64,000 bases of DNA from Coleofasciculus sp. B1-GNL1-01 (lineage in GTDB: Bacteria; Cyanobacteriota; Cyanobacteriia; Cyanobacteriales; Coleofasciculaceae). The notes beneath the pieces were generated by a model that saw nothing but the letters and a program-made list of their open reading frames with translations, was not told the DNA's origin and did not search any database. This document shows, piece after piece, positions 10,447 to 51,376 of this stretch (position 1 is its first letter; each line of letters opens with the position of its first letter). The translations under genes were made by a program, and so were the position numbers. The stretch is taken from assembly GCA_040220235.1 (NCBI GenBank), contig JAVJTO010000095.1. One strand, written 5' to 3'.

Positions 10447-12078
10447 ATGTCTGATATCGAAACTCCTTGCCTCAGTTTAGCGATCGCACGTCTGTCTACG
10501 GCTGGGGCAGATAACTTTGCCGTGTGGGTCATTGAAGCTCCTTATCCTGGGGGTTATGTTCATCATGACTCGATTTGGTCTCCCACTTTGACTCAGACTT
10601 GGTTGGCTTGGCAACAAATGTTTTCTACGGGTAATTTGCCCCCCTTATTACCCCTACCTAATCCCTTGACGCCTACGCCTACACCAACCCCAACCCTATC
10701 CCCCCAAAGCGAAAACGCTACACCGCAGACGACTAGCTACGGGGGACGGCTGATGCAGCAGTTGGGCATAGACTTGTGGAATTGGCTGTTTGCGGGTTCC
10801 ATTCAAACAACGTTGGCAGAAAGTCGGGGCATTGCCCGGGGACAAAATAAATCTCTGCGCGTGCGCTTGGAAATTCGACATCCTGACTTGATTCCCCTCC
10901 CCTGGGAAATTATGCAAGAAATGGCAGGCAAACCCGCGATTTCTCTGTCTACTCAACTACTGTTTAGCCGCACGACGAGTAATGTTGACTCTCTCAAACC
11001 GCTGATCCGCCATGATCAAGCCCTGAATATCCTGCTCGTATTTGGACAAGATGTCCACCGTTCCGGGGGTGATCAGTCAGCGGCTCGCTTACAGCTTGAA
11101 CAAGAGGCAACGGTTCTAGAAAATGCCTTCCAATCGTGTCAAAAGTTCAACCCCACAGCCGTTCCCTGTTTTGTGGAAAAGCTGCTACAGCCAACACCCG
11201 CTGACTTAATTGCCGCTTTAGACACAGGAGGTTACAATATCCTTTTCTATGCGGGTCATGGTGAACCTGCTCCAGATGGGGGTTTATTATTTCTCAGTCC
11301 GGATGCACCAATTAACGGTACGGAACTCGCTCAAGTCTTAGTTCGGAATCAGGTAACCTTGGCGGTATTCAATACCTGTTGGGGCGCTCAACCGGATCAG
11401 GTGGAAGGTCAAACCATTCCCCGGAGTAGTTTAGCGGAAGTGTTAATTCAACATGGTGTCCCCGCTGTTTTGGGTATGCGTGACTCGATCGCGGATCACG
11501 AAGCCTTGAGTTTTATCCAAAGTCTTGCCCAAGCCCTAGCTGCCCGGATGCCGATTGACCAAGCTGTCGCTGTTGCCAGACAACAATTGCTCACGCTTTA
11601 TAAGTTCAACCAACCAGCTTGGACGTTACCTGTGCTGTATATGCATCCGGAGTTTCAAGGACAGTTAATTGCTTTCTTAGAAGAAGGGATTACTGAGCTT
11701 CCGCCTATGCCGAGCAACTGGAATGGCGAACAAACGCCCACCGCTTGCTTACGCTCCTTAAACTCGATGGGTAAAGTTTGGCGAATTCGCGGCGCACTGA
11801 TGCGGGTGGGACGCGGGCAGGAGAATGATTTGGTTTTGGATGAGGAAATGTGGGTGAGCTATAAACATGCAGAAATTATCTGTCGCGATACCTTCACTCA
11901 TCCCGGACAAATCCCGACTTACTTCCTGCGTGATTTTTCTCGCAACGGCACTCATATTTTACGAGCAGATGGGTGGCATAAAATCCACCATCAGGAAGTG
12001 CCATTGGAGTCGGGTAGTCAGTTAAAATTTGGCAGTACTCAGAGTCAAACCCTGGAGTTTATTATTGAAAACCTTTAA
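10447..12078 (+). CDS. CHAT (caspase/HetF-like) protease with C-terminal FHA domain
   Basis: LPWEIM; catalytic FYAGHG and VFNTCWG; VLGMRD; FHA motifs VGRG..ND, VSYKHA and DFSRNGT. Confidence 0.9.
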   Translation: MSDIETPCLSLAIARLSTAGADNFAVWVIEAPYPGGYVHHDSIWSPTLTQTWLAWQQMFSTGNLPPLLPLPNPLTPTPTPTPTLSPQSENATPQTTSYGGRLMQQLGIDLWNWLFAGSIQTTLAESRGIARGQNKSLRVRLEIRHPDLIPLPWEIMQEMAGKPAISLSTQLLFSRTTSNVDSLKPLIRHDQALNILLVFGQDVHRSGGDQSAARLQLEQEATVLENAFQSCQKFNPTAVPCFVEKLLQPTPADLIAALDTGGYNILFYAGHGEPAPDGGLLFLSPDAPINGTELAQVLVRNQVTLAVFNTCWGAQPDQVEGQTIPRSSLAEVLIQHGVPAVLGMRDSIADHEALSFIQSLAQALAARMPIDQAVAVARQQLLTLYKFNQPAWTLPVLYMHPEFQGQLIAFLEEGITELPPMPSNWNGEQTPTACLRSLNSMGKVWRIRGALMRVGRGQENDLVLDEEMWVSYKHAEIICRDTFTHPGQIPTYFLRDFSRNGTHILRADGWHKIHHQEVPLESGSQLKFGSTQSQTLEFIIENL

Positions 12079-25214: not shown

Positions 25215-26321
25215 ATGACACGACAACCCCACGACCAATTTGCCAAACAGTATCTGGAAGAATTATTAGCACCTCTGGGTACAGTAGAAACCAGCCGCGA
25301 TGTACTCAGCGAAGTTCGCCAGGTTGATGTTTGGTTTGTACCTGCGCCTTCACCCTCCCCAGAATCCGAGACTCTAGGATTACTAAGTAAAATGGCAGCA
25401 ACCACTTGTTTATTTGAACCGTTTCGCAATGCTCCTACCCCAGTAGAAGTGCGAAGTTGCATGTTGAAATTGTATTCTGTGGAAGCTGAACTTTTACGCA
25501 AGGCGCGACGGGAGAGACGTTCTCTATCAGAAGATGAGTCACCCCGTTTATGGATTCTGTCCCCCTCTTGTTCTCAACGGTTACTCAACGGGTTTGGTGC
25601 CAAGTTGAATCAGGAGGAGAATTGGGGAGAAGGGGTTTACTTCTTACCGGAGTTTCAGAGAACCGTACTGGTGTCGATCAACCAATTACCCGTAAGTCAA
25701 GATACACTTTGGTTAAGAGTATTAGGAAAAAGGAGAACGCAGCAACAGGCAATTGATGAGTTAGTCGGATTACCCCAAGAGAACCCATTCCGGCGCAATA
25801 TCCTGGAAATACTAGCCAATTGGCGCATCAATGTGGGCAGTAGTGAAACGTTAAGTAATGCAGATCGGGAGTTGATCATGAACTTATCACCAGCGTATTT
25901 TAAATGGCGGGAAGAGGCTGTATCAGAAGGCAGACAAGAAGGCAGACAAGAAGGCAGGCTGGAAGAACGGCGGCAAATGGTGGAAAACTTTCTCAGAGTA
26001 AGGTTTGGGGAACTGGATGAAGAATTAGAAGCGATCATCTCACCGATATTACAGTTACCGCCAGATGTGTTGACTCGTCTACTGTTGAACTTTTCCCCCG
26101 AAGAGTTATTACTGTGGTTTGGTGAGAGTTCTGGGCAAGATTTGAGATTAGGCGAAGAAGGGCGAGAAAAAGTGGAGAACCTGCTGAGAGTGCGGTTTGG
26201 TGAAGTTGATCAGGAATTAGCCGACAAAATCGCATCCATGTTAGAGTTACCCCATCAAGAGTTGACTCCTTTGCTGTTGACTCGTTCTCGTCAGGAATTA
26301 TTAGAACGGTTTGCTAGGTAG
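25215..26321 (+). CDS. Rpn/PD-(D/E)XK-like nuclease-family protein with a duplicated DUF4351-like C-terminal domain
   Basis: HDQFAKQYLEELL, QVDVWF.P and LFEPFRN; EGRQEGRQEGR linker; two ENxLRVRFGExD units. Confidence 0.8.
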   Translation: MTRQPHDQFAKQYLEELLAPLGTVETSRDVLSEVRQVDVWFVPAPSPSPESETLGLLSKMAATTCLFEPFRNAPTPVEVRSCMLKLYSVEAELLRKARRERRSLSEDESPRLWILSPSCSQRLLNGFGAKLNQEENWGEGVYFLPEFQRTVLVSINQLPVSQDTLWLRVLGKRRTQQQAIDELVGLPQENPFRRNILEILANWRINVGSSETLSNADRELIMNLSPAYFKWREEAVSEGRQEGRQEGRLEERRQMVENFLRVRFGELDEELEAIISPILQLPPDVLTRLLLNFSPEELLLWFGESSGQDLRLGEEGREKVENLLRVRFGEVDQELADKIASMLELPHQELTPLLLTRSRQELLERFAR

Positions 26322-26470: not shown

Positions 26471-29400
26471 ATGCATTACCAACAACAACAGCCAACAGAA
26501 AAACGTCAAACCTATTTTCTCAAGCCAACCTCTTGGCAATGGTTGGTTTATTCCTGCCATGCTGTAATCACCATCTTCAGCAGCGTTTTTATTGTAGCTG
26601 TGGAACAAGATCAGGTGTTGTCCCTACCAAAACGCGCTGGAGAGATAGCGCCGATAAGGATCGCCCAAACCGACAAACGCGCTGAAGCCGAAAGACTGTA
26701 TGAAGAGGGATTGCAACTGTTTCGACAAAGGACAGCCGAATCACTGCAACAAGCGATCGAAAAATGGCAAACAGCGCTTCCTCTGTGGCGTGAGGTGGGA
26801 GATCAATCAAAAGAGGCTTTTATTAATCTGGCACTGGGTAGCACTCATGATTCACTAGGATTCAAGCAAAAAGCGCTGGATTATTATAATCAAGCCTTAC
26901 CTCTTTATCGAAAACTCGAAGATCGCGCCCTTGAAGCAGTCACCCTGAATAATATTGGTAGTGTCTATGATGACTTAGGAGAAAAACAACAGGCATTAGA
27001 GTACTACCAACAGGCTTTACCCTTATCTCAGGCTGTGGGCGATCGCGCCAGGGAAGCAACAACCCTGAATAATATTGGTGATGTCTATTCTGATTTAGGA
27101 GAAAAACAACGGGCATTAGAGTACTTCCAACAGGCTTTACCCTTATTCCAGGCTGTAAGCAATCGCGAAGGAGAAGCAGCCACTCTGAATAATATTGGTC
27201 TTGTTTATTCCGACTTAGGAGAAAAACAACAGGCATTAGAGTACTACCAACAGGCTTTACTCTTATCCCAGGCTGTGGGCAATCGTGAAGGGGAAGCAAT
27301 AACCCTGAATAATATTGGTGATATCTATGATAACTTAGGGGAAAAACAACAGGCATTAGAGTATTACCAACAGGCTTTATCCCTATTTCAGGCTGTAGGT
27401 GATCGCGCCGGGGAAGCAGCCACCCTCTCTAATATTGGTTTGGTCTATCGTGAGTTAGGAGAAAAACAACAGGCATTAGAGTACTACCAACAGGCTTTAC
27501 TCTTATCCCAGGCTGTGGGCGATCGCGCCAAGGAAGCAACAACCTTGACTAATATTGGTGCTGTCTATCATGCCTTAGGAGAAAAACAACAGGCATTAGA
27601 GTACTACCAACAGGCTTTACCCTTAATCCAGGCGGTGGGCGATCGCGCCGGAGAAGCAACAATCTTGACTAATATTGGTGTTGTTTATCGTGAGTTAGGA
27701 GAAAAACAACAGGCATTAGAGTACTACCAACAAGCTTTACCCTTATCTCAGGCTGTGGGCGATCGCGCCCAAGAAGCAGCAACCCTCTCTAATATTGGTA
27801 CTGTCTATCATGCCTTAGGAGAAAAACAACAGGCATTAGAGTACTACCAACAGGCTTTACCTTTATCCCAGGCTGTAGAAGATCGCGCCCTTAAAGCAAC
27901 AACTCTCTCCAATATCGCCTACGCAGAAAGAAGTCGAGGCAATTTCCAACAAGCGTTGATTCAAATGCAAGCTTCGATTGAGATTATCGAAGACTTGCGG
28001 ACTAAAGTAGCTAGTCCAGAATTACGTCAAACCTATTTTGCAACTGTACAACATTATTACCAATTCTACATCGACCTGCTGATGCAACTGCATCAACAAA
28101 ATCCTAATCAAGGCTACGATAAACTAGCCTTTCACATCAGTGAACGTTCTCGCGCCAGAACTCTATTAGAATTACTCACCGAAGCCAATGCCAATATTCG
28201 AGAAGGTGTAGATCCTGACTTACTGCAACAAGAACAAACCTTAAACGCTAAACTTGATGCAACGGAAAAACAACGGATTGAAATATATAGCAATCCTGCA
28301 TCCACCCCAGCCCAGAAAACCGCCATTGAACAACAACGGCAACAACTTTTAGAGGACTATCAACAACTGCAAGACCAAATCCGGGCGACAAGTCCTAAGT
28401 ATGCCGCGCTGAAATATCCCCAACCCCTCACCTTAGAACAAGTTCAACAACAGATTCTGGATGAAGACACTCTTCTATTACAGTATTCCTTGGGAAGAGA
28501 CAATAGTTATCTGTGGGCAGTAACCAAAGATAGCTTTACCAGTTATCAACTCCCTCCCAGAGACGAAATCGAAACCCTAGCCCGCCGATTTTATCGCCTC
28601 TTACAAATTCCCGGTTATGAAATTGGTAATCCCAGAGGCATTGCTAAAGTTGTCCCCCGTGATAATTTAAATTCCGTAGCACAACTGAGTGAACTCCTCT
28701 TCGGACAAGTGGCTGAACAATTAACCAAAAAACGCATCGTCGTTGTTGCAGATGGGGCATTACAATACATTCCTTTTGCCGCTTTAGCCACTCCCGAAAC
28801 TGCTGATACCGATACTCCTATCCCCCTAATCAATCAATACGAACTGGTCAACTTACCCTCCAGTTCCACTTTAGGGATTATTCGTGACCAAATTAACGGA
28901 CGCCAGGAAGCGCCCCAACAATTAGCAATTCTGGCTGACCCGGTTTTCACGGATAATGATAACCGCCTCAAAAATGTCCCCAGCCGAGAGATGAAAGTCA
29001 ACTTAAACCAAGCTTCACTCAACCGTTCTATTCGCGTGTCCGAGATTAACTTAAATCGCCTCCCCGGAACTCGCACTGAAGCCGAAGCGATTCTCAATTT
29101 AGTGTCACCAGAGACACAAACCAATGCGTTTGATTTTGAGGCTAATCGTGATTTTATCAACAATCCGCAACTGAGAAATTATCAAATTATTCATTTAGCC
29201 ACTCACGGCATTCTCAATAGTGAAGCGCCCGAATTATCGGGTGTGGTGTTATCCTTAGTGGATAAACAAGGGAATCCAAAAAGTGGCTTCTTACGTCTCC
29301 ATGATATCTTTAACCTGAATCTGCCAGCGGAATTAGTCGTATTAAGTGCTTGTCAAACGGGATTAGGAGAAGAAATTCGAGGCGAAGGATTAGTGGGTTT

Positions 29401-29629
29401 AACGCGAGGGTTTATGTATGCAGGTGCGCCGCGTTTAGTGGTGAGTTTGTGGAATGTGGATGATGCAGCAACGGCGGAGTTTATGACTCGATTTTATCAG
29501 TTAATGTTGAATGAGGGGTTAAAGCCTGCCCAAGCGTTGCGGGAAACGCAGTTACAAATGCAGCAGGAAACCCAATGGAAATCCCCCTATTATTGGGCGG
29601 CGTTTACATTACAAGGTGAATGGAATTAA
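26471..29629 (+). CDS. TPR-repeat CHAT (caspase-like) protease
   Basis: Eight 40-aa TPR repeats; SERSRARTL; ADGALQYIPFAAL; catalytic HLATHG and LSACQTG; PYYWAAF. Confidence 0.93.
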   Translation: MHYQQQQPTEKRQTYFLKPTSWQWLVYSCHAVITIFSSVFIVAVEQDQVLSLPKRAGEIAPIRIAQTDKRAEAERLYEEGLQLFRQRTAESLQQAIEKWQTALPLWREVGDQSKEAFINLALGSTHDSLGFKQKALDYYNQALPLYRKLEDRALEAVTLNNIGSVYDDLGEKQQALEYYQQALPLSQAVGDRAREATTLNNIGDVYSDLGEKQRALEYFQQALPLFQAVSNREGEAATLNNIGLVYSDLGEKQQALEYYQQALLLSQAVGNREGEAITLNNIGDIYDNLGEKQQALEYYQQALSLFQAVGDRAGEAATLSNIGLVYRELGEKQQALEYYQQALLLSQAVGDRAKEATTLTNIGAVYHALGEKQQALEYYQQALPLIQAVGDRAGEATILTNIGVVYRELGEKQQALEYYQQALPLSQAVGDRAQEAATLSNIGTVYHALGEKQQALEYYQQALPLSQAVEDRALKATTLSNIAYAERSRGNFQQALIQMQASIEIIEDLRTKVASPELRQTYFATVQHYYQFYIDLLMQLHQQNPNQGYDKLAFHISERSRARTLLELLTEANANIREGVDPDLLQQEQTLNAKLDATEKQRIEIYSNPASTPAQKTAIEQQRQQLLEDYQQLQDQIRATSPKYAALKYPQPLTLEQVQQQILDEDTLLLQYSLGRDNSYLWAVTKDSFTSYQLPPRDEIETLARRFYRLLQIPGYEIGNPRGIAKVVPRDNLNSVAQLSELLFGQVAEQLTKKRIVVVADGALQYIPFAALATPETADTDTPIPLINQYELVNLPSSSTLGIIRDQINGRQEAPQQLAILADPVFTDNDNRLKNVPSREMKVNLNQASLNRSIRVSEINLNRLPGTRTEAEAILNLVSPETQTNAFDFEANRDFINNPQLRNYQIIHLATHGILNSEAPELSGVVLSLVDKQGNPKSGFLRLHDIFNLNLPAELVVLSACQTGLGEEIRGEGLVGLTRGFMYAGAPRLVVSLWNVDDAATAEFMTRFYQLMLNEGLKPAQALRETQLQMQQETQWKSPYYWAAFTLQGEWN
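26921..27880 (+). repeat. 8 x 120-bp near-identical intragenic tandem repeat
   Basis: aatattggt...ttaggagaaaaacaacaggcattagagtactaccaacaggcttta recurs every 120 nt. Confidence 0.97.
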
Positions 29630-42905: not shown

Positions 42906-45900
42906 CTACGGCTGAGAGCCAATTCCGTCACAAAGACTGCGATCGCGTTTGTCCAAACTAGGGTTATTCTGGAGATAATCCCGTAGGCGATCGCAGCTAC
43001 GTTCGATGAGCTGATTTGCCGACAAAAGAGTCACATCCCACAGAATCAGGCTCTTATCATTAATTGCCGAGGCAATGAGTTCATTCTCAGATTTGAATCT
43101 CACCTGCCAATCCAAATCCCTTGGTCCCGACAGAGTATGGAGTAACTCACCGTCTCGATTCCAGAGTCTGACGGTCTTATCTTTACTCATTGTGGCAATT
43201 TTCTCACCCTTTGGACTAAACACGACTCCGTTAACCTCATCGGTATGACCTTCTAAGGTTTCTAGCAACTCGCCGTTTCGATTCCAGAGTCTGGCGATTT
43301 TGTCTGCACCCACTGTGGCAATAACTTGACTATCTGGGCTAAATGCTACTCCAAACACTTCCTTATCATTAGGTTTTTGGTTATCATCAATCAGAGTATT
43401 TATCTCTTTGCCGTCTTTAGCATTCCACAGTTTGACCGTTCCATCCCAACTTGCCGTAGCAATCATCTGACCGTCTGGGCTGAACGCAATTCCCCGAACT
43501 TGCTCCTCATGTCCTTCCAAGGTTTTTTCTGGGGTGTCATCGAGTGTCCAGAGTTTGACCGTCTTGTCCTTATTCGCCGTGGCGAGGATTTGGTTATCGG
43601 GGCTAAAAGCTAGGCTGTTAATCTCCTCAGCCTGACCGAATAGAGTTGCGACAAGAGTGCCGTCAGCCTGCCAAATTTTTACAGTATTGTCCCGACTCGC
43701 CGTAGCAATAAGTGTACCGTCTGGGCTGAAAACAACGTTGTAGACGCCAGACTGATGCCCTTCTAGGGTTTTGATTAAAGTACCATCAGTCTTCCAGAGA
43801 TTGACGGTGCTGTCTTCACTCGCTGTAGCAATCTTCTGACCCTTTAGATTGAAGTCTATACTATGGATCTCCTGAGCATGCTTTTTAAGGATTCTTTTGT
43901 TCAAGCTTTGATCTCGCTTCCAGAGTTTGACTGTGTTGTCTTGACTTGCTGTTGCGAGCATCTCACCATCAGGGCTAAACTCTATGCCAAAAACACCGTC
44001 GGTATGCCCTTCCAGGGTTTCGAGTAAAGTGCCATCTGTTGTCCTCCAGACTTTAATCGTCTTATCCCAACTTGTCGTCGCAATTCTCTTGCCATCGGGA
44101 CTGAAATCAACTCGGATCACCCGATCCGTATGACCGTTGAGCGTATGGCGTAACGTACCATTAATTTCCCAAAGTTTAGCTGTATTATCTCGACTCACAG
44201 AGGCAATCATCTGACCATCAGGGCTAAATGCCACTCCGAAAACGCGATTACTATGGCTCTTGTCTCCTTCTAAGGTTTCGTCTTTTAGGGTACGAAATGA
44301 TTTGTCATCCGTAGTTTTCCAGAGTTTGACTGTCCCATCCCAACTCGCTGAAGCAATTATCTGACTATCGGGGCTGAACGCTATTGTGTCAATCACATCT
44401 TCGTGTCCTTTCAGGGTGTTTAGCAATTTGCCATCCCTAGTTCTCCAGAGTTTTATGGTTTTATCCCCACTTGCCGTAGCAATGAGCTTGCCATCCGGGC
44501 TAAAAGCTACACCAAAAACTCTATCCTTATGCCCTTCTAAGGTACGTACTGGTATTATACCTATCTTGTTATCTAGCTTTTTTTCTAGCTTCCACAGTTT
44601 TACCGTCTGGTCGAAACTTGCTGTGGCAATCATTTTACCATCAGGGCTGAAATCTAAGCTATTAACTTTATCCTCATGCCCTTTTAGGGTATGAATCAAC
44701 TTACCATCAGGCTGCCAAAGTTTGACCGTATAGTCAAAACTTGCTGTGGCAATGGTCTGTTCATCTGGGCTGAAAGCCATTTGGATGACCGCATCCTTGT
44801 GACCTTCGTCACCTTCAAGGCTGTTATACTCTTGATACTCTTTAAATCCGGAAACGCCTCGCTGTAGCATCCGTTCTACTTTAGGCTTTATTTCAGCTTT
44901 GAAATCACCTATTTTTTGCAGTTCCTTCCAGGCAACTACTGTTTTTTTAAGTGCATCTAATTCTTGATTCTCTGCAAAAAGTCTTTCAGATTCAGCAATA
45001 GTTTTTGTTATGACTTGCATATTCCGATTTTGGATTAGCCATCCTACCATTGGCGTAGCGAAAACTATAAACATAAAGCCAGCCACTGTTACGGTTTGGA
45101 AAATTCGCAGTTGTCGCCGCAAAAGCTGATCAAGCTGCACTTGACTCTGCTGGAGCCTTTCTAAAGTGTCATCTCCAATTTTTTGGCGAATAAAAGTCAC
45201 CAAATAATCATGAACTAACTGATAATGATTATCAGGAATACTTTGCCAAAGAAAGACTAAACCTGATTCTTGGAGAATTTGTAATACAACTTTAAGTGTT
45301 TTATCTAATCTCAAATCATTGCTTTTTGATTTTGTCGTCAAATCAAGAGTAAATATATACCTCCAGAAATTATTCCTGAATCCTTCTAATAATTTAGATT
45401 TTCGGGAAATTTCCAGAAGTTCCAGGATCTCTTTTTTCAAATCATTATGGGTTTTCAACGGACGAGTTTTATTTTCATCCGTCAATAAAAACAAAACTAA
45501 CCAGGCAATTTCTTCATTCTCTCTGCCACAGTCTTGAACAACAGATTCCAAATAGCGTTGGACTAATTGTTGTTTAGCTTGAAAACCAAGCTGCTTATAC
45601 TGTGCCAAGGTAGTAATTCCTTCGGCTTGCAATTGTGCGCCAACAATCTGTAACTCAATGGGACGGACTTCTCCCTGATTTTTGGATAGTTCTCGTACTA
45701 TTTCATCGATCAAAGCTGACTCCAAAGAAAATGCCGAGTTCTCAGTTAAACTGTGGATTACATTTTTGGCATCTTCTGGTGATAAATTTCCTAATGTATA
45801 GAGACAGGTTTTACCGAGAACATCCTTGTTTACAATTGCCATTGCCTTGAGACGATTGCAAGGCAGCAAATAATGGATAAAATCTTCTCGTATTGACAGA

Positions 45901-47837
45901 ATAACTTTAACAAAACTCATCCTTAAGCATTCAGCGATAAACTCAAAGAAGATTTGCCGTTGCTTCCATTCTGTGCTAGCAAAGAAAAACTCTTCAAACT
46001 GGTCAAAAATTAAAACCGTAAATAAATTATCCTCTTCATTACGTTGTAACGCCTCAAGCAAAGACACAGTGGAATCCGGTGGATTCGGTAAGCTTATTCC
46101 TCGTTGATCAAGTGCCTTGGCTAAGGATTGACCTAACTCCCGACACCAGTCGGTGTAAACTCGTAGGAGAACGGGTAAACTATCGCGAATACCGATACTG
46201 CGACGCTTGAGTTCAGGGATTAAACCCGCATTCACCAGAGAACTTTTACCGACACCGGAAGGTCCACAAATCACCGTCAGTTGGTGCTGATTGTTACCCA
46301 TGCGGGCAATCAAATGCCGCACATCCCGTTCTCTTCCTGAAGCAATAATCTCTGGGGCAATTGTTTTTTGCAATCTGGTAACTTCAGATTTCGGCTGTCG
46401 CTGGGGTTGTAAATTCCCAGCACCAATAAATGCCCGAAAACCAAACTGTTGCTCGATTGAGCGTTGATATTGTTTAACCTCAAAAGCCTGGAGATAATCC
46501 TGTTGCTCAAAATACAGCGATCGCAATTCCTCAAGAATCTGAATGTAAAGCTGCGGATTGTCCTCTGGATCACCATTTTTTGCCGCTTCTAGTGTCTCAA
46601 ACGCCTCCTGAATCTGCCCTACTTGTCGTAAGCTTTGTGCTAATACCAGCAGATGTAACCCCCGATATTGCTGTTGTTCACTGGGAAGACGATTGACAAT
46701 TTCCAGGGCTTTTTCCGCCAGTTCTTTCGCCTCAGTCGGGTTGGGCGGCTTCTGGTTGAGTGCGACTTCTGCCAAAAAGCTGTAATCTTGAGCCAATTCT
46801 ACACTCATCCCATACCTTTCGTGCAGTGGTTTGAATTGATTTGCCAGCTTCTGTAATTCGTGCCAATCCTTAAGTTGTCGCAGTACTTTGCCCAATTCGT
46901 TGCTAAACTTAGCCACTAAATCCTGCCGCTGTGCCTGTTTAAACCGTTCCAGACATTGTTGTAAATAAGGCAGAGATTCTTCACAGAAAAAGCAGTTGTC
47001 TGAGCGACACAGTTTTCCGGTGCGGGAATAACACAAGCCAATATGGAACAGTAGCACTCCTTGTCGTTCTAATAAGCAGGGGGTAGGATTATCCTGAGTT
47101 GTGGACTCCCAAAAGTCTAGACTGTTTTGGTAATAGGTTAATGCTTGTTCCAGTTGACCGACGACAAACGCATCTCGCCCCTGAACAAATTGCCAGCAGG
47201 CTTCGAGTTCTGGTGTCAATGGCAGATTATAGCGCTTCAAATCGGCGATCGCACATTTAATTTCTGAGAGATAGCGCCAGCCAAAGATAGCTTCATTGGA
47301 GAGGAAGCGATTCGCCCCTGCATTTAAAACCGCTTTAAAGAGTTGCCTCACCCGCTTGTGGAGAATGTCTTGCAACTCTTGCGGCGTAATCATCAATTCA
47401 GTCAGGGTTCCCCAATTTTTTAAATCAGGGGCAATCCGTGTCAGTTGCTGGGAAATGGAATCATTAATCCATATCAATACTGGGAAGGGGCAATGCTGGC
47501 GAAACTCCTCTCGCACCGAATTCATTGAACTCAGCAATTGCTTAATCTCCCGCACTGACTCTATGCCTAAAACCATTAAAGCTGAAGGCTGTTCATGTCC
47601 TAATTGCTCACGAATTGTAGCGTAGATCCTGGTTACTGATGGTTCGAGGACAATTGTTCGCATCTCTGGGTAACGTTGGCGTAATCGCCGCACCATCTGC
47701 TGCTGTAAGAGTGCGTAGTTACAGTGAACCCAAATTAGGGAAAATTCCCCTTCAGACATGGAAATTGCCCAAGCCAAATCTTCTAACGACTGTTCGCTAG
47801 GGGAAAGATTTTTCCGAGAGGAGTAAGATTCCATCAT
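42906..47837 (-). CDS. STAND-type NTPase with TPR-like region, TM segment and 14 WD40 repeats
   Basis: Degenerate P-loop-like N-terminus; TPR-like helices; GPSGVGKS and VLIFDQFEE (nSTAND1-like); YQLVHDYL; TM; 14 GH..SPDG..W units. Confidence 0.9.
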   Translation of the reverse strand: MMESYSSRKNLSPSEQSLEDLAWAISMSEGEFSLIWVHCNYALLQQQMVRRLRQRYPEMRTIVLEPSVTRIYATIREQLGHEQPSALMVLGIESVREIKQLLSSMNSVREEFRQHCPFPVLIWINDSISQQLTRIAPDLKNWGTLTELMITPQELQDILHKRVRQLFKAVLNAGANRFLSNEAIFGWRYLSEIKCAIADLKRYNLPLTPELEACWQFVQGRDAFVVGQLEQALTYYQNSLDFWESTTQDNPTPCLLERQGVLLFHIGLCYSRTGKLCRSDNCFFCEESLPYLQQCLERFKQAQRQDLVAKFSNELGKVLRQLKDWHELQKLANQFKPLHERYGMSVELAQDYSFLAEVALNQKPPNPTEAKELAEKALEIVNRLPSEQQQYRGLHLLVLAQSLRQVGQIQEAFETLEAAKNGDPEDNPQLYIQILEELRSLYFEQQDYLQAFEVKQYQRSIEQQFGFRAFIGAGNLQPQRQPKSEVTRLQKTIAPEIIASGRERDVRHLIARMGNNQHQLTVICGPSGVGKSSLVNAGLIPELKRRSIGIRDSLPVLLRVYTDWCRELGQSLAKALDQRGISLPNPPDSTVSLLEALQRNEEDNLFTVLIFDQFEEFFFASTEWKQRQIFFEFIAECLRMSFVKVILSIREDFIHYLLPCNRLKAMAIVNKDVLGKTCLYTLGNLSPEDAKNVIHSLTENSAFSLESALIDEIVRELSKNQGEVRPIELQIVGAQLQAEGITTLAQYKQLGFQAKQQLVQRYLESVVQDCGRENEEIAWLVLFLLTDENKTRPLKTHNDLKKEILELLEISRKSKLLEGFRNNFWRYIFTLDLTTKSKSNDLRLDKTLKVVLQILQESGLVFLWQSIPDNHYQLVHDYLVTFIRQKIGDDTLERLQQSQVQLDQLLRRQLRIFQTVTVAGFMFIVFATPMVGWLIQNRNMQVITKTIAESERLFAENQELDALKKTVVAWKELQKIGDFKAEIKPKVERMLQRGVSGFKEYQEYNSLEGDEGHKDAVIQMAFSPDEQTIATASFDYTVKLWQPDGKLIHTLKGHEDKVNSLDFSPDGKMIATASFDQTVKLWKLEKKLDNKIGIIPVRTLEGHKDRVFGVAFSPDGKLIATASGDKTIKLWRTRDGKLLNTLKGHEDVIDTIAFSPDSQIIASASWDGTVKLWKTTDDKSFRTLKDETLEGDKSHSNRVFGVAFSPDGQMIASVSRDNTAKLWEINGTLRHTLNGHTDRVIRVDFSPDGKRIATTSWDKTIKVWRTTDGTLLETLEGHTDGVFGIEFSPDGEMLATASQDNTVKLWKRDQSLNKRILKKHAQEIHSIDFNLKGQKIATASEDSTVNLWKTDGTLIKTLEGHQSGVYNVVFSPDGTLIATASRDNTVKIWQADGTLVATLFGQAEEINSLAFSPDNQILATANKDKTVKLWTLDDTPEKTLEGHEEQVRGIAFSPDGQMIATASWDGTVKLWNAKDGKEINTLIDDNQKPNDKEVFGVAFSPDSQVIATVGADKIARLWNRNGELLETLEGHTDEVNGVVFSPKGEKIATMSKDKTVRLWNRDGELLHTLSGPRDLDWQVRFKSENELIASAINDKSLILWDVTLLSANQLIERSCDRLRDYLQNNPSLDKRDRSLCDGIGSQP

Positions 47838-49252
47838 GACTTTAATTCCTTTGCCTCTGCCAAAATTGGATTAATATCAAACCAATACCCATCGTCATCC
47901 CGATACTCATAGACAAACAGGCTGCGGATTAGAGTTTTATAGTCTTGAGCGCCCGCCACCTTTTTGTGTTGGGCAACTTGTCGCAGTAATTGCCATTCGG
48001 TATCACTAACAGCTAAAACCGCATCATTGCGATGTTCTCGAATTACATCTTCTAGACAGTCGCGACAAATGGGTAATCCTTTTTGTTTTTTAATCGAGTC
48101 ATTTAATAGCCGCAGTAAATTCCGCACATGACCGCCACTAATTTGACACAAACGATCTAATGTTGCAGGATGATCAAAAACCTCGGTTATCCGATGGAGA
48201 CGATCTGGCTCATTCAAATCAGGAAATGCTCTTGCCAGCACCATTTGTCGCAGTCGCTTCATTCCTTCAGCACATTCTGTTCCATCCCGCGATCGCACGG
48301 GGATCATCGGTAACACTTGGGGATTGACCAAAAATCGCTCCACTAAAGTACCAAAGTCCTTGGAGAACCGTAACGCCAAGGGCATGGTATAAATAACATG
48401 ACAATTCAGTTGACGTAACTGTTGACCTCGGTCTACAAATAAATATTCTTGTTGCGGTCGTCCGAAGGGTTTGGGAGTATTACTGATGCGGTCAAGATTA
48501 TCGACGATTACCACCAGTCCCTTTTTACCCTGGACTCTCAGTTGTTCCTGTCCCGGTTCTAATAATTCAGAGTTAATTGCCTCTAAAATTCCCTTAGTTT
48601 GCGGTTCCAGATAACTTCTTAACTTATTCCGTAACTCAGGAGACGCCTTCGCCTTGGCTGAAATCTTACCAATTAAGGGGGCAATTAGGGAAAGTCCTTC
48701 CTCAGAGGATAGGCTGACTTTGCCAATTCCAGGAATACCAACATCAACAGAGAACTCTTCCTCGATTTTCCCTGTAATCTTACCCATTCCCAGGACTGAG
48801 GCTTCGGCAGATAATTCAATCTCCGTTTGCAACAGTTTACTGACTTGCTTTAGCCTGGTCTTGAGACTGGTTGATTCTTCAAGTTTCAGGGTATCGAGAC
48901 TATTACTCACCTGACGGGCGATGGCTAGCAAAATATCGCTAATATCGACATCTTCAAACTCTAGGTCTTGATCGGACACAAAGTAAACTACATGAAACCC
49001 ACGATATTCTAACTCCGCCTTCAGGCGTAACAATTCCGTAGACTTGCCACAACCAATATGTCCAGTGAATAGCTGACAGGTTGGTGTATCCGGTGACCAT
49101 AAGGTGATATTTTCACGTAACTCTTCGATCACCTGACCACCACGCACCACAGAAAAATCAATGTAATACTTATAGTCTGTTTCTGCGTTGTTCAAAAACA
49201 GCGTTTTGCCGGGATTCGTGGCTTGAAAAAAACTCCGTAAATCCAGCTTCAT
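47834..49252 (-). CDS. P-loop (AAA/KAP-like) ATPase, translationally coupled to the STAND-WD40 gene
   Basis: FTGHIGCGKST Walker A; VVIVDNLD Walker B; SGGHVR; ATGA overlap at 47834-47837. Confidence 0.9.
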   Translation of the reverse strand: MKLDLRSFFQATNPGKTLFLNNAETDYKYYIDFSVVRGGQVIEELRENITLWSPDTPTCQLFTGHIGCGKSTELLRLKAELEYRGFHVVYFVSDQDLEFEDVDISDILLAIARQVSNSLDTLKLEESTSLKTRLKQVSKLLQTEIELSAEASVLGMGKITGKIEEEFSVDVGIPGIGKVSLSSEEGLSLIAPLIGKISAKAKASPELRNKLRSYLEPQTKGILEAINSELLEPGQEQLRVQGKKGLVVIVDNLDRISNTPKPFGRPQQEYLFVDRGQQLRQLNCHVIYTMPLALRFSKDFGTLVERFLVNPQVLPMIPVRSRDGTECAEGMKRLRQMVLARAFPDLNEPDRLHRITEVFDHPATLDRLCQISGGHVRNLLRLLNDSIKKQKGLPICRDCLEDVIREHRNDAVLAVSDTEWQLLRQVAQHKKVAGAQDYKTLIRSLFVYEYRDDDGYWFDINPILAEAKELKS

Positions 49253-49616
49253 AGCAATCTTAATTCAATTGTATGGAGGCATGTCAGTGTAGTTGTAATA
49301 CACTGAAATACCACTTTGGAATTTAGCACGGCTTAGGTAGGATGTGCAAACATTTTTATGAAACTATAATTTTCCTTAAAAAATATTGGGCTTGTTGTTA
49401 TCGTTAGTGTGGTGACAAGAAGCTTACAACAGCGTAAGGTAAATCATTTCGTCCTTTATCTGAGGACAGGACGGATGAGGGAAAAATGAGTTTCTAATTC
49501 ATCTTTCTTAAAACAAATATAGCCCTTGCCCGACTTGGCGAGTTTGCGTTTGGTCTGATCTACATCGGCTTTAACTCGTTCATACCTTGTCAGTAAGTAA
49601 GCCCAAACACCTGATC

Positions 49617-51145: not shown

Positions 51146-51376
51146 GTGAGGCAGGGCGGGTTTTGTTGTTCCGTTATTGGTGAGACAGGGCGGGTTTTGT
51201 TGTTCCCTTATTGGTGAGACAGGGCGGGTTTTGTTGTTCCCTTATTGGTGGGTAAGGGCGGGTTTTGTTGTTCCCTTATTGGTGGGTAAGGGCGGGTTTT
51301 GTTGTTCCCTTATTGGTAGAATATCTAATTTAGTCCCTAAACCCGCCCCTACAATGTCCCTAAACCCGCCCCTACA
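51146..51376. repeat. 5 x 34-bp tandem repeat followed by 2-3 copies of the complementary REP arm
   Basis: GTGRGNNAGGGCGGGTTTTGTTGTTCCCTTATTG five times without spacers, then TCCCTAAACCCGCCCCTACAA twice plus a partial copy. Confidence 0.93.

Follow-up and report, generated by a model that had tools for sequence, protein, structure and literature searches.

We propose that a gene in a 64,000-nucleotide stretch of DNA from Coleofasciculus sp. B1-GNL1-01, a mat-forming, filamentous cyanobacterium (contig JAVJTO010000095.1; the whole stretch is referred to herein as the window) encodes a sensor-protease built on an array of reshuffled TPR repeats. The gene lies on the plus strand (26471..29629), and its product of 1052 amino acids, termed herein the TPR-CHAT protein, was assigned from its open reading frame (ORF), Pfam matches to TPR and CHAT, an AlphaFold2 (AF2) model and Foldseek matches. 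We consider it probable that the array is reshuffled and diversified and that the protein is a diversified, exported sensor-protease. The longer chain of events, in which the exported protease binds a foreign peptide and then cleaves and activates a twin-arginine orthocaspase in the cell envelope, is the mechanism that we tentatively prefer, at somewhat less than an even chance. We infer a role in defense or allorecognition.

The TPR Array and the CHAT Protease

The TPR-CHAT protein has a hydrophobic segment near its N-terminus, followed by two divergent capping TPR-like repeats (26681..26920, seen in the translation and as helices in the model), eight near-identical TPR units of 120 bp or 40 residues (26921..27880), a last degenerate repeat with a helical linker (27881..28660) and the caspase-like CHAT domain (28679..29620), all on the plus strand. 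Tandem Repeats Finder (TRF) places the array at 26921-27903 with 8.2 copies and zero indels, all eight units are in frame, and the Pfam matches are to TPR_12 (E 2e-91) and, at residues 737-1050, to CHAT (PF12770, E 5e-71). The first-pass annotation, which was made from the DNA alone, had described eight 120-bp units ahead of a CHAT domain, and the ORF, TRF and the translation agree with it. Every residue that it listed is correct, with S,D,L,D,L,A,V,T at unit position 14 and DD,SD,SD,DN,RE,HA,RE,HA at positions 17 and 18, as is the mosaic sharing of RE by units 5/7, HA by 6/8, ATLS by 5/8 and LT by 6/7. It had also reported an intact catalytic dyad, and His912 (codon at 29204) and Cys961 (codon at 29351) indeed fall within CHAT motifs; they are kept in 11 of 11 copies of the gene within the genus and are invariant across 83 aligned homologues, and signal-dependent proteolytic activity is predicted. 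Purifying selection acts on both the linker (pN/pS 0.24) and, among the 11 genus copies, the CHAT domain (pN/pS 0.15).

The units vary at positions 4, 7, 10, 14, 17, 18 and 36, while Asn11 is conserved, and to the annotation's list we add the hydrophobic N-terminus and a sixth variable site (position 36, where helix B ends). The earlier description of the units as almost identical even at synonymous sites was too strong, because they differ pairwise by 13-27 bases per 120 (mean DNA identity 84.7%) with a synonymous diversity, pS, of 0.23, about the same as that between the CHAT domains of different genus copies (0.24). Invariant among the eight are 17/40 codons and 25/40 residues. Their amino acid identity of 79%, which was obtained by means other than T-REKS, lies above the 0.7 threshold given in the available text of one study (PMC13449251) and below the 85% in that of another (PMC4986451). 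The closest named proteins are from Coleofasciculus (90-92% identity). There was no Pfam match in the TPR-CHAT protein to a NACHT/NB-ARC ATPase or to a SAVED domain, no P-loop motif was flagged, and PADLOC gave only generic TPR matches. A scan for promoters and terminators gave fewer sites than in shuffled sequence.

Array Variation Across the Genus and the Wider Family

The array was compared across nine genomes of the genus, the genome of origin plus eight others from which 20 regions were fetched, and the protease gene was found at two chromosomal sites. Complete copies contain 0, 2, 4, 7, 8, 9, 13, 15 or 26 units, and three further copies split by contig ends contain at least 13, at least 13 and at least 16. 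Hence the prediction that repeat number and order differ between genomes is borne out, the comparison being across related species-level genomes and not strains. For instance, the alleles of genomes G002 and G005 at site B have identical or near-identical units at both ends and a different middle. The genus provides 126 units, of which six were dropped (three with stops and three poor or chimeric-looking at the ends) and three duplicates were merged to leave 117, and among 120 units 99 different six-position codes were counted. Units of one gene differ by 19.9, compared with 20.6 between genomes, and since these distances are so similar a shared pool of units fits better than gene-specific homogenization; concerted evolution within genes was rejected on these values. 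The DNA identity of the CHAT regions of the 11 genus copies is 88-96% and that of a flanking gene is 93-98%. A tree of the CHAT regions does not separate the two chromosomal sites, whose copies are intermixed, and one tract is free of differences between the two copies of G005.

The family is large, as 7987 of 8000 scored candidates belong to it, which, together with the frequency of high-identity arrays in the genome of origin, lowers the surprise of this one gene. Plasmid-borne relatives occur in 13 records, and an annotated caspase adjoins them in none of the three that were inspected. One such member (L209, NC_019700.1) lies beside an AbiEi/AbiEii pair and an integrase, and another (L211, NC_010631.1) in a row comprising two CHAT genes and one TPR gene. 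Among public sequencing runs none contained more than 25% of the words, and the matches were to contigs of other strains only. Some joints in these runs match whole-unit steps (120, 600 and 840 bases) and another skips the protease gene, all at 85% likeness and with two having less than 30 bases on the short side. These joints are hints only, and the RNA run does not show transcription.

The Variable Residues and the Predicted Peptide-Binding Groove

Position 1 of Pfam TPR_1 corresponds to unit position 6, and in this register unit positions 7, 10, 14, 17 and 18 are TPR positions 2, 5, 9, 12 and 13, and Asn11 is TPR position 6. The accessible part of an earlier TPR analysis (PMC1261162) gives 2, 5, 9, 12, 13, 33 and 34 as the variable positions of the concave face and Asn6 as a backbone contact. 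Asn11 is conserved in 112 of the 117 distinct genus units. In the AF2 model, which covers the protein from 26663 on (mean pLDDT 82), helix A comprises unit positions 2-18, and on a helical wheel positions 4, 7, 10, 11, 14, 17 and 18 share one 140-degree face. The groove was therefore assigned from the Pfam register, secondary structure and the helical wheel, and not from three-dimensional contacts. The first-pass annotation had predicted that the variable residues would lie on the concave face, which is where register and wheel place those of helix A, and the residues that vary are mainly those predicted to line a peptide-binding groove. Foldseek matches of the model include separase, DdvA (PDB 8rw5/8rot), LGN and a CRISPR caspase regulator complex. 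The best natural solved relatives of the array are the 40-residue TPRs of LGN/Pins (PDB 5a7d, 3sf4), which grip extended peptides via Asn residues, as described in the available portion of PMC3438535.

Selection and Recombination Among Units

When a per-codon population model with a shared mutation rate was applied to the 117 units, omega was 5.0, 12.6, 8.0, 6.3, 3.2 and 8.0 at unit positions 4, 7, 14, 17, 18 and 36, respectively, and four of these six are the TPR ligand-contact positions 2, 9, 12 and 13. Of the neutral simulations, 1/400 attained a likelihood ratio of 17, which is the value observed for five of the six codons. The site-wise excess of nonsynonymous change that had been anticipated is accordingly found at six codons with a shared rate, and with free rates only position 14 is robust. 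The four-gamete test is failed by 73-86% of site pairs (54 informative sites), and linkage decays with distance, within ~10 bases (p 0.0015), although recurrent mutation contributes too. The varying unit number and order, the recombination signal, and omega above 1 at codons that include four ligand-contact positions beside a conserved Asn together give good support to the earlier idea of recombination-diversified sensing.

Two specific sources of the variation were considered and rejected. The first is a diversity-generating retroelement (DGR), since there is no second match of at least 75% to the array in the assembly (which has gaps) and adenine-rich codons (GAA, AAA, CAA and AAT) remain fixed, which is not as expected of DGR adenine mutagenesis. 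The second is recombination at HIP1 palindromes, which appear to have no special role because they are present in 60/88 Gly-Asp-Arg junctions (68%) compared with 464/619 (75%) genome-wide.

Evidence for Export

A hydrophobic segment at residues 22-44 (26534..26602, plus strand; Kyte-Doolittle window score 2.1), with only ~21 residues before it, is likely a signal peptide or anchor. Such an N-terminus is present in 66/81 full-length homologues compared with 35% of 1175 control ORFs and 6/120 Rpn-like homologues (these being relatives of the gene upstream, see below), and in 39 of the 57 CHAT ORFs of the genome of origin; the Rpn-like protein encoded upstream lacks one. The TPR-CHAT protein is probably exported, and it and the Rpn-like protein are likely to sit on opposite sides of the membrane.

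Linkage to Twin-Arginine Orthocaspases

Caspase genes were counted in those 56 of 76 family loci outside the genus that have at least 7 kb of upstream DNA. A Peptidase_C14 gene is present in the locus of 8/15 high-identity arrays but of only 1/41 other arrays (Fisher p 4e-5). In the reciprocal search the caspase was found in 33/301 cyanobacterial genomes, and 43 of 49 places outside the genome of origin were fetched, in 40 regions. A CHAT domain is present in 24 of these 40 caspase-centered regions and a high-identity array in 19, and in two more regions a TPR array reaches the edge of the contig. By comparison, CHAT is found in 0/18 control windows chosen arbitrarily from long contigs in 13 of the genomes and in 11% of random windows of the genome of origin. 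Of 24 CHAT-caspase pairs defined by motif, 18 are direct neighbors and 20 are on the same strand, often with gaps of less than 350 bp (~20 bp at L087 and L121). A twin-arginine-like motif is present in 42/43 caspases, and all 32 that were aligned have the catalytic His and Cys as well as an Arg seven residues past that Cys.

Within the genus, five copies of the protease gene end tail-to-tail with a twin-arginine caspase. The genome of origin has four such caspases, one of which directly precedes a 15-unit paralogue, while two have no CHAT neighbor and the fourth, at the second site, stops 327 bp short of a contig end, the assembly having nothing of the site beyond it. The first of these is this genome's cleanest CHAT-caspase pair (G000:C17:60317-66201), in which the twin-arginine caspase (C14, with a weak DUF4384 match) is followed by a signal-peptide TPR-CHAT protein with 15 high-identity 40-residue units. 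As separate observations on the family loci, genes for a family of ~250-residue proteins with no Pfam match lie in divergent orientation beside low-identity TPR-CHAT genes at 8/76 loci (L064, L088, L091, L093, L097, L099, L101 and L112), and DUF928 genes are near 9 of the 76.

We propose the following mechanism. The TPR-CHAT protein would be exported through its signal-like N-terminus, and in the envelope the conserved Asn ladder would hold the backbone of an extended peptide, with its side chains read by the variable residues, in the manner of LGN and HOP. Peptide binding might then align the His/Cys dyad, as in Craspase, and the logic of a resting dyad is borrowed from the published portions available for DdvA and Craspase. 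The substrate of the CHAT protease would be the exported caspase, modelled on the cutting of PCaspase by SAVED-CHAT in the available account of that system (10.1101/2023.06.23.546230). The protease copy at 26471-29629 lies at a distance from every caspase gene, and its action would be in trans. The selective pressure may be a biological conflict with phage, a predator or a neighboring filament, and recombination among units and between gene copies, together with selection, would renew the residue code. Extended to its full generality, this would mean that Sec-exported recombining TPR-CHAT receptors recognize non-self proteins in the envelope and activate Tat-exported (twin-arginine translocation) orthocaspases, a form of innate immunity or kin recognition in filamentous cyanobacteria without the ATPase of a NOD-like receptor (NLR), a nucleotide messenger or a retroelement; we regard this as speculative and rather unlikely to be right in every part.

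The caspase as substrate has several findings against it. There is no caspase gene near the protease copy in the window or near 7/15 high-identity arrays, and 16/40 caspase regions have no CHAT domain, some of them being short contigs. The p-values for linkage are overstated, since the genomes are related and a CHAT-linked locus supplied the caspase query. When the linker and CHAT region were modelled in complex with a caspase from the genome of origin, the score was 0.00, which is evidence neither way. It is a substantial possibility, if not the one that we favor, that the sensor-protease has another output, its direct target being the protease itself, a protein of the envelope or sheath, or the foreign protein that it has bound, with the caspase as a co-clustered, parallel effector. 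All of the evidence from the array fits such an output, the low-identity members of the family adjoin DUF928 and other genes instead of a caspase, and self-cleavage has been proposed for DdvA in the accessible text of PMC11506125. On the other hand, the association with the caspase is specific to high-identity arrays, the pairs often share one strand with short gaps, both proteins look exported, and cleavage of a caspase by a CHAT protease has a tested precedent in the available part of 10.1101/2023.06.23.546230.

Alternative Explanations

Several results weigh against the reading as a diversified, exported sensor-protease. The population model was our own implementation of a Dirichlet-multinomial approach, and it assumes one mixed pool of units. 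If the mutation rate is free at each codon, only position 14 is clearly significant (p 0.0005), with positions 7, 10 and 17 marginal (p 0.01-0.03) and 4, 18 and 36 not significant, and a three-fold local mutation rate mimics the selection signal in 13% of 150 simulations. The whole-array pN/pS is below 1 (0.55-0.57, the latter for the eight units of the window). Four of 12 genus copies are broken (one deletion and three stops), which may be turnover or assembly error. The genome of origin contains 74 ORFs with high-identity arrays and 57 with CHAT, so the trait is common here, and the call of export was made by hydropathy alone.

One alternative is neutral array dynamics, in which unequal crossing-over resizes and homogenizes the array, the groove positions are tolerant or mutate faster, and the protein is an ordinary cyanobacterial signaling protease. 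The overall pN/pS of 0.55, the weakening of the selection signal with free per-codon rates and the abundance of high-identity arrays in this genome are in keeping with it, as is the variability of groove positions across all TPRs in the text available for PMC1261162. Nevertheless, we consider neutral dynamics improbable, as a model-free comparison gives a heterozygosity of 0.51-0.68 for codon bases 1+2 at sites 4, 7, 14, 17 and 36, above every value at the 13 fourfold-degenerate sites of the framework (mean 0.22, maximum 0.50), and the third base of site 14 is low (0.22). Moreover, the polar helix-B positions 23, 30 and 31 are nearly invariant in the genus units, and the same unit positions vary in many separate lineages, including 34 homologues ranked beneath the closest genus matches and most of 19 further arrays.

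The protease gene is flanked on one side by an ORF that we take to resemble fructose-1,6-bisphosphatase and on the other by an Rpn-like gene (25215..26321, plus strand) with a PD-(D/E)XK-type N-terminal fold and two DUF4351-like C-terminal modules. The latter ends 149 bp ahead of the protease start codon, in agreement with the spacing of ~150 bp noted previously. Its model (pLDDT 86) has NucS/EndoMS as the top fold match (Z 9.4, rmsd 3.0, 104 aligned), followed by AF1548, McrC and Can2, while Foldseek alone gives E 0.45. The gene scores 15.8 bits with the Rpn model TIGR01784 (cut-off 52.1) and 22.8 bits with that of DUF4351 (cut-off 25), and PADLOC returned no match for it. An internal GGAG and ATG (Met222; 25867..25880, plus strand) are conserved and are a candidate start for a small C-terminal protein. 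Met222 is nearly invariant in 87 Rpn-like homologues, and the arrangement recurs, as a sequence pattern, in three genes of the genome of origin and at 17 places in other loci, one with GTG. Because of its PD-(D/E)XK-type fold, weak DUF4351 match and conserved internal GGAG-ATG, the upstream gene is built like Rpn/RpnS. It shares with that system (10.1101/2023.05.02.539157) the nuclease-type fold, a DUF4351-like tail and an internal ribosome-binding site and start codon, and it differs in scoring below the Rpn cut-off and in being known from sequence and a model; the text available for that study mentions no protease.

The first-pass annotation had raised the possibility that the two genes form one defense or allorecognition locus. 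In that model the sensor would control the neighboring Rpn-like toxin, perhaps through cleavage of a small antitoxin made from the C-terminal part of the toxin gene. The PD-(D/E)XK-type fold and the internal start suit this idea, and the Rpn-like gene or its 3' part lies ~130-150 bp upstream of 11/11 genus copies with assembled upstream DNA, at both chromosomal sites, from which we conclude that the two genes were duplicated together. The physical linkage, however, is confined to the genus. No Rpn-like gene is present near 76 TPR-CHAT loci of other genera (20 of which have less than 7 kb upstream) or in the 40 caspase-centered regions, none of 29 Rpn-like genes of other genomes has such a TPR-CHAT gene within ~1.5 kb (there is one distant TPR match), and the other four Rpn-like copies in the genome of origin have no TPR-CHAT gene within 3 kb. 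The Rpn-like family is scattered, with up to 15 matches per genome. The two genes also break independently, the Rpn-like gene being truncated beside an open CHAT gene at G002 site A and in G005, whole beside a broken one in G001, at G002 site B and in G006, and alone at G001 site B. Taken together with the likely separation of the two proteins by the membrane, this makes a functional pair very unlikely. Since the Rpn-like gene is absent outside the genus, belongs to a scattered family and either gene may be broken beside an open partner, we read the link as that of a probable passenger. At the second site, two loci (L024 and L028; G002:C156 and G003:C26) have several orphan 3' Rpn-like fragments upstream of the full gene, some of which keep the internal start, like stand-alone RpnS copies. 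Fic/Doc genes lie near four family loci (L049, L059, L094 and L117) and Uma2 genes near seven (e.g., L051, L057 and L060), which indicates that small scattered toxin-like genes besides Rpn settle beside TPR-CHAT proteases.

It is scarcely credible that a short-read assembler built a chimeric array by collapsing two copies of the gene. The far side of the second site is absent from the assembly and several relatives' contigs break inside the array, but the eight units are in frame without indels. Ten other arrays of the genus show the same pattern, as do arrays of other genera that lie on multi-megabase contigs (L072 and L144), and collapse could change the order in this allele but not the family pattern.

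Other Features of the Window and Genome

The window contains a second CHAT protein, with a C-terminal FHA domain (10447-12075, plus strand), and an nSTAND1-WD40 protein of 1654 residues (42909-49264, minus strand) downstream of a 476-residue ORF with no Pfam match, which together look like a two-gene STAND module. Five 34-bp tandem repeats without spacers are present at the start of an ORF (51146-51317). The 74 coding high-identity arrays of the genome are of TPR, WD40, HEAT-like and LRR repeats; 12 of these ORFs include CHAT, many have a P-loop motif, and the set may be an NLR-like repertoire that is diversifying in the same way. About 20 of the 57 CHAT ORFs form a second large class with a signal-like start (e.g., C7:32083-39090 and C97:13438-21723), the N-terminus of which presumably resembles the secretion domains of filamentous hemagglutinin.

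Significance and Comparison With Known Systems

To our knowledge, the CHAT proteases and orthocaspases of cyanobacteria are numerous and mostly have no known activators or substrates. Our analysis names a testable pair, the high-identity TPR-CHAT protease and the twin-arginine orthocaspase, as well as a six-position residue code, and the 117 natural units on one scaffold are a ready library for studying TPR-peptide specificity. It would also bring the repeat shuffling known from fungal NLRs into a bacterial protein that has no such ATPase and is likely in the envelope, and it would put a CHAT-to-caspase cascade outside the cytoplasm. Each part has precedent, and we did not find the combination in print. 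In the literature, including the available text of two surveys (PMC8283722 and PMC3501461), no account was found of shuffled, exported TPR-CHAT arrays or of linkage to a twin-arginine orthocaspase, and supplementary operon tables could list the pair.

The fungal NLRs with TPR, WD40 or ankyrin (ANK) repeats of high internal conservation, as in Podospora, resemble the present system in having near-identical repeats with number polymorphism, positive selection at the binding surface, exchange between loci and frequent gene loss, according to the portions available for PMC4986451 and PMC13449251. The TPR-CHAT protein differs in having no NACHT/NB-ARC ATPase, in a C-terminal effector that is directly fused and in being likely exported rather than intracellular. 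High-identity repeats have been noted in bacterial NLRs, where diversification was only suggested in the accessible text (10.1101/2020.01.06.895854). Coral TPR-CHAT (TTC28-like) expansions share the domain order, and the available part of PMC12314368 reports hundreds of copies with variable TPR length and discusses them beside immune families; they are diversified via gene duplication in animals, and that text describes no caspase linkage. The TPR domain of LGN/Pins (PDB 5a7d, 3sf4) shares 40-residue repeats and the Asn motif and binds extended peptides in its groove, but in the excerpted account (PMC3438535) it belongs to a eukaryotic adaptor with no protease and with degenerate, fixed repeats.

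Two bacterial systems are closer in their logic. DdvA of Myxococcus xanthus is also a TPR-CHAT protein, with an extracytoplasmic location, a resting His/Cys dyad and a proposed role in sensing an unidentified signal, but it is an anti-sigma factor of the membrane with a zinc domain in the cytoplasm, neither such a domain nor a sigma gene is present at the protease locus, and no repeat shuffling is described in the text available for it (PMC11506125). In the SAVED-CHAT/PCaspase system of Haliangium ochraceum, a CHAT protease fused to a sensor is genetically linked to a prokaryotic caspase, and cleavage of the executioner by the initiator has been tested, as given in the available part of 10.1101/2023.06.23.546230. 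The likeness in linkage holds for the family and for five genus copies but not for the copy in the window. Its sensor is a SAVED domain that reads cyclic oligoadenylate from type III CRISPR, whereas here that role would fall to a TPR array that varies, and both proteases look exported. Hence the TPR-CHAT gene is not an NLR, not a DdvA, not a SAVED-CHAT and not DGR-driven.

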